The notes under the pieces: model-generated
What the model was told of the DNA's origin: nothing
The model's database searches: none
The model's input: only the letters and a program-made list of their open reading frames with translations
Virus record (IMG/VR): IMGVR_UViG_3300029742_000228
Coordinates: 1-10,144 of that record
Source: a virus
Taxonomy: Duplodnaviria > Heunggongvirae > Uroviricota > Caudoviricetes
Strand: one strand, 5' to 3'
DNA: 10,144 nt
Shown here: positions 6,018 to 9,000 of the stretch, piece by piece
Numbering within the stretch: position 1 is the first letter of the stretch
Layout of the letters: every line of letters starts with the position of its first letter
Made by a program: the position numbers and the translations under genes

Positions 6018-9000
6018 TCAGCTGATACTGATACCTGCTGTGGATTTCTTCATCACCACAACCAGCAGATCGCTGATACTGGTTGTTGGTGTCCAGTTAT
6101 TCGCTCCTGATGAAGATACGGTGAATGTCAGTGTCAGTGTCCCCTGTCCGGCAGGCATATCTATAACTGAAGAAAATACGCCCTGAGCATCCGTCGTGGA
6201 CTGATTAAAAATCTCCTGACCATTGCGGGTCACTCTTAACCGGCAGGTTGAATACCAGTATGACTGTTGGTTATTACTGTTGAAATTCTCATGCTTACCA
6301 CCGCGGAATAACACTGGCGGTATCATGACCTGCCGGTCAAATTTCTGATCATCACTGATTCTTACCGTGATGGTGCCGCTGGCATAACTGTTCGTGCGGG
6401 GGAAAGACTTGCTGACCGTTTTGACAATATCGCCTTCAATCTGGTTGGCTGACAGTTTCCCCTTAATCTGACAGTTCTCATTTATCGTGACGTTGTTGAG
6501 CGTCCCGGAGTTCGCATTCACACTGCCACTGATATCCGCATTTTTCGCCGTCAGCCGCCCGTCCGGTGTCAGGGAAAATGCCGGAGGATTGCCGCCGCTG
6601 GTAATGGTGGGGGCCGTCAGGCGTTTCAGGAACACATCGTTCATGAATATCTGGTTGCCCTGCGCCACAAACATCGGCGTTTCATTCCCGTTTGCCGGGT
6701 CAATAAACGCGATACGATTGGCGGCAACCAGAAACTGGCTCAGTTTGCCTTCCTCTGTATCCTCCATGCTGAGGCCAAGCCCCGCGACATAATGCTTACC
6801 GTCTTCGGTCTGCTCAATTTTGACGCCCCACATGGCATTCCATTTATCACTGGCGTCTTTCCACTCTTTCGAAAACTCATCCAGTCTGCTGGCGTTATCC
6901 TCCGTCAGGTCGACTTTTTCCAGCAGCTCTTTACCGAGATGGGATTCGGTTATCTGGCCTTTGAAAAAATCCAGGTAACCTTCCGCATCATCGCTCGCCC
7001 GACCGACGGCTTCCACGAATGCCGATTTGCCAACGGTGTTCACACTGCGAACGTAAAAATAATAATCATGGCCCGGCCTGATATTGATACTGGCAGCTAT
7101 CCAGTACAGCGCCGTGCCAAGATAGCGGGCTGTGGTTTCAACCTGCCTGATATCCGCAATCCGTTTTTCCGAGAACCAGAACTCAAACTGTACCGTCGGG
7201 TCATAAACCGCAAGATGCGGCGTGGCGGTTATCTGAAAATAGCCCGGTGTCAGCTCAATCCGAGACGGCGCTGCCGGTGCGGCAATCCGGAACGATACCG
7301 ATGCCGGATCGCCCTGCTGTCCCCACGCATTTACCGCCCGGACTGTCAGCCTGTAGTTCCCCAGCGCCAGTTGCGTGAAGCGGTATGTGGTTTCCGTCGT
7401 CCGGGCCGTGCTGACCAGCCGCTCACTGCCGTCATCCGCTGCCACGGTCAGGCGAAGCATAAAGCTCACCCCCTTCACCACCTTCGGCGTGTCCCAGCGC
7501 GCCAGCACCTGATATTCCCCGCTGTCTGCGGTGACTTCGGCAGTCAGTTGCTGCACCGCTGGCGGCGTGACACCATTCACCGTGCCGCTCTGGTCGCCGT
7601 CAAAGTGCGCCCCGTTATCCACGATGGCCTCTTTTTCCGGNNNNNNNNNNNNNNNNNNNNNNNNNNNNNNNNGTCGTTCTCACGGATACTCACGCAGCGG
7701 AACAGGCGCTGGCGCAGCGTCGGCAGCTTCAGCCCCCACACGCTGTATCCGGCAACGCCGTCAGGAACACGGCTCACTTTTACCTTCACGCCGTCGGTGA
7801 CGGACTGGACCTCCACGCTGACCGGATTGCCACTTCCGTCAACCAGGCTTATCAGCGTGGTACCGGAGGATGGCAGCGTGATTTCACGGTCGAGCGTCAG
7901 CGTCCGGGTCTGGCTGTTCACAGCCAGCACGCGCCCGCCGATGCTGATCCCCGCATAGTCATCATCGCAGATTTCAATAACATCACCCGGCACATGGCGA
8001 AGCCCTTCGGCACCCACGCTGAAATCCACGGTCTGCGTCTCCAGCAGCTCCGTTTTAATCAGCCACAGCCCGGCGCGGTGTGCCTGCCCCCGGCTGGTAC
8101 AGCCAAAGGCATCCATCTTCGTAACATTACGACCGTAACGGGCAATGGCCTGCGTATCTTCAACAAGCTCTGTCGCCGTCTCCCAGCCGTTGTTCGGGTC
8201 AATCCAGTTCACCTCAACGGCATTATGGCGGTCCTTCAGGGCGCTGAAGCTGTAGCGGAACGGCGCGCCATCATCCGGCATCACCACATTACTGCGGTTA
8301 TAGGTCCACACCTTATCTGATGGTCGGTCCTGCACGAACGTCAGCGTCTGCCCGTTCCATACCGGCATACAGCGCATCGCCGAGCAGAAATCACTGAGCA
8401 CATCCCACGCCTTGCGCTGTGTGGTCAGGTACGCATTACAGGTGATGCGCGGCTCCGTGCCGCCAAAGCCGTCCGGCACTGACTGGTCGCAGTACTGGCC
8501 GATAACATACAACGCCCATTTATCCACATCCGCCGCACCAAGACGTTTCCCCATGCCGTAGCGCGGATGGGTCAGCATATCCCACAGACACCAGGCCATG
8601 TTGTTGCTGTATGCCGGTTTAAACGTTCCGTCCCAGATACCGCTGTATTGCCGCGTCTGCGGGTTATAATTCGACGGCACCTGCAGAATACGCCCGCGCA
8701 GATGATAATTACGGCTCACCTGCTGGCTGCCGAACTGCTCCGAGTCCACCTGCACGCCGACCAGTGCCGTGTTCGGGTAGCACTGTTTCACATCGATAAT
8801 TTCGGTGTATGACGACCAGAGCGTTTTGTTCTGCAGCTGGTCTGTGGTGCTGTCCGGCGTCATCCTGCGCATCCGGATACTGAACGGGCGCGGCGGCAGG
8901 TTATCCACCACCACCGAGGCCAGATACTGTGAAGTGGTTTTACCCTTAATGGTGATGTCTTTTTCCGTCACCCAGCCACCGTTACGTTGTATCTGAACCA

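Follow-up and report, generated by a model that had tools for sequence, protein, structure and literature searches.

Which receptor is served by a tail-tip protein J that reads as lambda J for most of its length and as something else at its end? This question is raised by a 10,144-nt stretch of tailed-phage DNA (Caudoviricetes; IMG/VR record IMGVR_UViG_3300029742_000228, positions 1 to 10,144; the whole stretch is referred to as the window). A first-pass annotation, made from the letters of the window, had proposed that the N-terminal and central parts of J are near-identical to lambda gpJ, that the last ~150 residues differ strongly, and that this tip may recognize an outer-membrane protein other than the lambda receptor LamB. 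To address the question, the J protein was aligned with lambda J, its C-terminal end was compared with all PDB chains, with 50,697 phage records and with 5,426 complete Escherichia coli genomes, and the surrounding locus was examined.

The tail module and the end of gene J

The window carries the distal end of a lambda-like tail module on the minus strand, in the order I - J - lom - stf, collinear with lambda 14.7-20.5 kb according to ORFs, Pfam matches, alignment and RefSeq annotation. The features are as follows.

9473..10144, minus strand: complete gene I (tail tip assembly), 223 aa, DNA 95-100% identical to lambda
6018..9412, minus strand: gene J (tip attachment / central tail fibre protein), based on ORFs, Pfam matches on the TUM1887 copy and the RefSeq label of that copy, gpJ
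7641..7672, unstranded: run of 32 N within J, replacing 36 nt (codons 581-592, DGTYAITAVQHV) of lambda and TUM1887
6021..6497, minus strand: non-lambda C-terminal J module, about residues 973-1132, based on the change-point, 45% identity to lambda, 100% identity to A8 gpJ, and G+C
6021..6395, minus strand: Ig-like receptor-binding domain (RBD) proper, J residues 1008-1132, Pfam Ig_GpJ_C (PF12421, E = 4.9e-36)
5981..6000, minus strand: terminator-like hairpin with a T run after it, immediately 3' of the J stop and ahead of lom
5352..5951, minus strand: lom, encoding an outer-membrane beta-barrel protein of the Ail/Lom type; the allele is not that of lambda (94/207 residues shared with lambda Lom)
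3743..5293, minus strand: 5' reading frame of stf with a phage_tail_N domain, its first ~345 aa 77% identical to lambda orf-401
1686..3863, minus strand: 3' reading frame of stf with a Peptidase_S74 intramolecular-chaperone end, separated from the 5' frame by a -1 frameshift
about 1637-1506: tfa fragment

According to the ORF list, J starts at 9412 and ends with a stop codon at 6018-6020 on the minus strand. In a near-identical copy of the locus in E. coli TUM1887, J is an uninterrupted protein of 1132 aa, and a scan of this intact copy revealed six Pfam families (FNIII-A_GpJ, Phage-tail_3, Ig_J, Ig_J_second, Phage_Tail_Tip and Ig_GpJ_C), all exceeding their cut-offs with E values of 1e-33 to 1e-43. 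Since 32 N stand in the window for 36 nt in lambda and TUM1887, window J as given splits into two frames, with its halves out of frame; if the N run preserves the original length, the source J carries a frameshift, and if the length of the mask is arbitrary, J is intact. The last of the six families carries the full Pfam name [quoted passage not shown], and its match indicates that the end of J is homologous to the RBD of lambda rather than a domain of unrelated origin. Downstream of J, phage 21 has an annotated terminator at the place equivalent to the hairpin at 5981..6000.

Global protein alignment of window J with lambda J (NC_001416 15505-18903) revealed that 939 of 968 aligned positions are identical over residues 1-980 (97%), whereas only 66 of 147 (45%) are identical over residues 981-1132, where there are also two deletions, of 4 residues and of 1 residue, and an insertion of 5 residues (body versus end, Fisher exact p = 4e-57). 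Both halves of the earlier description of J thus agree with the alignment, the identity of the C-terminal end to lambda being 45% and not over 90%; the C-terminal peptide quoted there is the true end of J, and 6021-6470 are its last 150 codons. The limit set for the divergent region was less exact: a two-rate model applied to the DNA alignment with lambda placed the change-point at J nt ~2920, i.e., codon ~973 or window ~6497, so that the divergence is real but starts ~30 nt upstream of 6470. DNA identity to lambda is 95.4% before this point and 51.7% after it. G+C is 0.469 in 6018-6497 compared with 0.58 across the remaining J, with a value of 0.542 for lambda's own tip. The module at 6021..6497 comprises the final strands of the central straight fibre plus the RBD, and the divergence from lambda does not end with J but covers most of lom as well, reaching window ~5450. 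These results confirm that this prophage has a J tip unlike that of lambda.

The receptor of the tip

To identify the tip, all PDB chains were searched, and it was found to be identical at 152 of 152 residues to the chain "A8 gpJ 713" of entries 9WCA and 9WCB (phmmer, 326 bits, versus 106 bits for the lambda J chain). With a 421-residue query, full identity to 9wca_J extended over 168 aa, from about residue 965 to the C terminus, and the differences from the A8 chain were confined to the part upstream of ~965, where the deposited protein is lambda. When the PDB was searched with E. coli OmpC, 9WCB proved to include three chains named "Outer membrane porin C" as well, which means that the exact tip of the window has already been solved together with OmpC. 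Our literature search found no paper on 9WCA/9WCB or on a cryo-EM study of A8 gpJ.

The origin of A8 is described by Brödel et al. (Nature 2024; PMC11338833), who joined C-termini from natural E. coli prophage J proteins to lambda J, with the junction at residue 964. Of the chimeras, which were screened on recipients lacking lamB, A8 and 1A2 were characterized as OmpC users. Published A8 gpJ is thus engineered, with lambda residues 1-964, whereas window J is natural, and the two differ at 11 positions within residues 713-964. At the DNA level, the "GpJ A8" sequence in the supplement of that study differs from the window by 2 synonymous changes in the last ~430 nt, besides machine-reading dropouts, while 1A2 is a different allele (63%). 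In the source data of PMC11338833, the assay host was an MG1655 lamB/ompC double deletion with MG1655 OmpC supplied from a plasmid; with this host, A8 particles yielded 95.2% GFP+ cells at an MOI of 84, compared with 1.9% at an MOI of 135 for wild-type lambda particles and 2% at an MOI of 39 for 1A2 particles. Among the OmpC variants in the same study, 21/23 were served by A8, 1A2 or both. A later preprint repeats that gpJ-A8 and gpJ-1A2 recognize OmpC and not LamB. A 2026 receptor-prediction preprint treats Drexlerviridae-type GpJ and says nothing about lambdoid tips.

The proposal that a non-lambda tip implies a different outer-membrane receptor is accordingly supported, given that the identical A8 end uses OmpC instead of LamB (PMC11338833; 9WCB). 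Judged by its identity to tested material, the module is shown to be one that would use the trimeric porin OmpC for irreversible adsorption and DNA delivery, with no need for LamB. This assignment follows from exact identity with A8 and not from family resemblance; the receptor data come from the lambda(1-964)/A8 chimera, and the body of window J differs from it at about 3% of residues.

The closest RBD among classical phages is that of phage 21 (OL657228), which is identical at 124 of 152 positions (81.6%), including the last 32 residues, and differs at the other 28 without indels, representing the same lineage but a distinct allele. Its J body, with 1160 aa and a 28-aa insertion, is 91.5% identical to that of the window. 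Phage 21 is reported to use only LamB natively and to gain OmpC use via I1025T (PMC11336670, Table 1), and the residue equivalent to I1025 (motif GDIVK) is unchanged in window J, as in phage 21. On these grounds, the tip might still bind LamB as phage 21 does, and its divergence from lambda would then mark a second LamB-binding lineage with no change of receptor. We consider this highly improbable, as the identical A8 RBD delivers DNA efficiently to lamB-deleted cells given OmpC, where wild-type lambda fails (PMC11338833), as the same RBD was deposited in one entry with OmpC chains, and as the window and phage 21 RBDs are not the same allele. The A8-type tip might nevertheless have retained a latent use of LamB. 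We also suggest, tentatively and with more doubt than confidence, that the A8/phage-21 RBD lineage holds a natural LamB-to-OmpC switch brought about by at most 28 substitutions, none of them at the I1025 position.

The structures of lambda J with LamB suggest, by analogy, how an OmpC-binding tip would act. The lambda-type body of window J would comprise the hub domains, the FNIII/Ig domains, the helical shaft and most of the central straight fibre, and the A8-type module would form an Ig-like trimer at the extreme tail tip, as in lambda. The lambda RBD is Ig-like, with four bottom loops that insert into the extracellular lumen of the porin (PMC11101478); likewise, the bottom loops of the three window RBDs may contact the OmpC trimer at its extracellular side. 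By the lambda model, OmpC binding would push the three RBD bases apart, and the change may be relayed up the beta-prism fibre, which would twist, and the helical shaft, which would flip, until the strings of FNIII domains dissociate and the tail tube opens for ejection. According to the authors of the lambda J-LamB cryo-EM study, OmpC loops clash with the open lambda RBD (PMC11101478), and this clash fits a use of OmpC that requires a different tip such as that of the window.

Relatives, prevalence and exchange of the tip

The 152-aa tip was searched by tblastn against the 50,697 phage records, and the matches fell into discrete identity classes.

98-100%: Stx1a and Stx2a converting phages, PhiR30_1, PhiR70_1
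81.6%: phage 21 and its relatives
77.6%: BP-4795, Stx2 phage 1717
about 60%: VT1-Sakai
42-45%: lambda, mEp460, HK630

Within the first class, PhiR30_1, PhiR70_1 and several Stx1a-converting phages carry a tip 100% identical to that of the window, and the Stx2a phages, 2H10 and CP-1639 carry one that is about 98-99% identical. The natural phages with the same tip differ from the window in the distal Stf and in the length of the J body, while PhiR70_1 also has a 1.7-kb downstream region in common with it. A literature search on PhiR30_1, PhiR70_1 and related phages yielded no paper and no receptor data.

The A8-type tip is found both on a 1132-aa lambda-like body (the window and PhiR30_1) and on a 1160-aa body with a phage-21-like insertion (PhiR70_1 and strain EC19), which is direct evidence of a recombination exchange near codon 965-973. 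Like J of phage 21, the 1160-aa body contains 28 extra residues and is divergent around J nt 2430-2700; its coordinates are 1114-4596 in L006 (PhiR70_1), 7519-11001 in L005 (EC19) and 177-3659 in L003 (phage 21). Exchange of J tips as modules is known among lambdoid phages, and window J would be a mosaic of this kind, in which a lambda-type body, residues 1 to ~972, was joined by recombination to an A8-type C-terminal module.

Alternatively, the C terminus could have diverged in place from a lambda-type tip through accelerated point mutation under diversifying selection, with no modular exchange; the J C terminus is indeed known to acquire host-range mutations and to be under diversifying selection, according to papers cited by PMC11336670. 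However, identity drops abruptly within a few codons, synonymous sites diverge as well, bringing the DNA down to 52%, and the end of J shows the shift in base composition and the three indels. Moreover, the identical module occurs on different J bodies and beside different flanks, and different RBD types adjoin one lom allele. In the tblastn search of the phage records, no graded lambda-to-A8 intermediates were detected, the tip identities clustering at 98-100, 82, 78, 60 and 42-45%. Divergence in place is therefore extremely improbable, and a recombinational origin of the mosaic is preferred.

The prevalence of the tip was assessed in the 5,426 complete E. coli genomes (ecoli_genomes) with the 456-nt tip DNA as the query at ≥95% identity. 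Chromosome or plasmid records with the A8-type tip numbered 1,518 (197 at ≥99% and 1,321 at 95-99%), and the lambda tip was found in 98 genomes, all at ≥99%; the five lambda-tip genomes listed are laboratory strains, namely DE3 lysogens and K-12 and B derivatives. Considering these results together, we assign a probability of about 0.9 to the reading that J of the window is a lambdoid prophage mosaic with an OmpC-binding A8-type tip, a common natural allele, and that the LamB-binding lambda tip is rare. Lambda J itself (P03749; PDB 8XCJ, 8XCK and 8IYK) has the same domain architecture, I - J - lom - stf order and RBD fold family as window J, but differs in its last ~150 residues (45% identical) and binds LamB.

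The window lom allele (≥95% identical) is a common one, being present in 148 phage records, and the lom of lambda, like its J tip, is the unusual version. We considered whether RBD and lom form one linked cassette, and rejected this because the window lom also adjoins other J tip types (mEp460, ev099, ev243, Stx2c phages and h434). The last of these, the phage 434 host-range J (lambda h434 imm21, OM418627), is a lambdoid J with an Ig_GpJ_C-type tip like that of the window, and the lom beside it is 96% identical to window lom, but its RBD is identical at only 71/149 positions (47.7%). Phage 434 is said to use OmpC (protein Ib), a report attributed to Hantke in 1978. If both bind OmpC, the h434 and window tips would represent separate RBD lineages.

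State of the locus and meaning of the tip

The TUM1887 copy shows 5 mismatches over window 1-9645; beyond 9645 the window departs from it and retains the full gene I. In TUM1887, the locus adjoins bioA and ybhB, the neighbourhood of the lambda attachment site, and is flanked by truncated tail and head genes; the prophage around this near-identical copy is decayed. A 57-nt piece of gene I was also matched exactly in two short MAG contigs, JAGZNZ010000043.1 ("Collinsella sp.") and SFQY01000093.1 ("bacterium"), which are most likely mis-binned enterobacterial phage fragments.

The opposite end of the window, 1-1500, has 30-37% G+C, no ORF of >70 aa and no gene annotated in RefSeq copies. It is 98% conserved in PhiR70_1, ev099 and mEp332, where an AraC-family regulator adjoins it just outside the window. 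No RNA gene was found in the window by an ARAGORN tRNA scan or by Rfam at gathering thresholds, and there was no complete tRNA; the ~50-nt 3' part of a tRNA-Ser gene (...GGTTCAAATCCCCCTCTCTCCGCCA) lies at window ~585-640 on the minus strand, and window 307-769 matches phage SerU-LTIIb at its tRNA-Ser annotation. This fragment is probably the leftover attachment-site copy of an element with a serine tRNA gene as its integration site.

The first-pass annotation had also described the J tip and the side fibre as two independently swapped host-range determinants. As sequence history this holds, with two separate blocks diverging from lambda: the J tip plus lom (~6497-5450) and the distal Stf (from ~4450 down), between which ~1 kb (~5450-4450) of DNA is 80-94% lambda-like. 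The distal Stf has an S74 chaperone end in the window and a Tfa-dependent end in lambda, and replacement of the latter is consistent with tfa surviving only as a fragment. As a statement about present function it probably fails, because the stf reading frame is broken near 3840, where the window and TUM1887 have an A7 run and strain EC19 has A8. EC19 encodes an intact Stf of 1200 aa, whereas the window stf is split into frames of 516 aa and 725 aa, so that the side fibre is probably not produced from the window copy. RefSeq marks the TUM1887 stf as "frameshifted", the deletion in the A run could be a homopolymer sequencing error, and a similar frameshift is well known from stf of the laboratory phage lambda PaPa.

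These features bear on a further reading, in which the locus is the remnant of a defective prophage and the J tip, whatever its former receptor, has no current role in host recognition. The TUM1887 copy has pseudogenes for neighbours (a tail protein and an S49 peptidase, both truncated, the frameshifted stf, and a piece of tfa), and the DNA upstream of J has been deleted there; the same -1 frameshift is present in the window stf, and the N run would break the J frame if its length is real. Nevertheless, genes I, J (N run aside) and lom are full-length and lambda-like in the window, J is an intact 1132-aa ORF in TUM1887, and isolated phages (PhiR30_1 and PhiR70_1) bear the identical tip. In addition, lambda PaPa is fully viable despite its frameshifted stf, as stated in PMC11338833. 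We regard a remnant as a serious possibility, at somewhat under even odds, and one that is compatible with the mosaic, A8-type identity of the module.

The mosaic reading places a very common allele in the window, and one that is already known: the tip has been named A8, its receptor has been assigned as OmpC, and its structure has been solved. Moreover, the A8 tip has been used in gut-active delivery particles. For annotation, the finding means that a J resembling lambda over 86% of its length need not bind LamB, since the last ~160 codons decide the receptor, and in window J these codons point to OmpC. In this respect, laboratory lambda is not typical of the prophages found naturally in E. 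coli, with ~1,500 A8-type records compared with 98 lambda-type genomes among the 5,426 genomes. Considering that the A8 tip occurs in more than one-quarter of complete E. coli genomes and that the lambda tip is essentially confined to laboratory lysogens, lambdoid prophages in nature would enter their hosts mainly via OmpC and not via LamB if the tentative reading of a natural receptor switch in the A8/phage-21 lineage is true as well.
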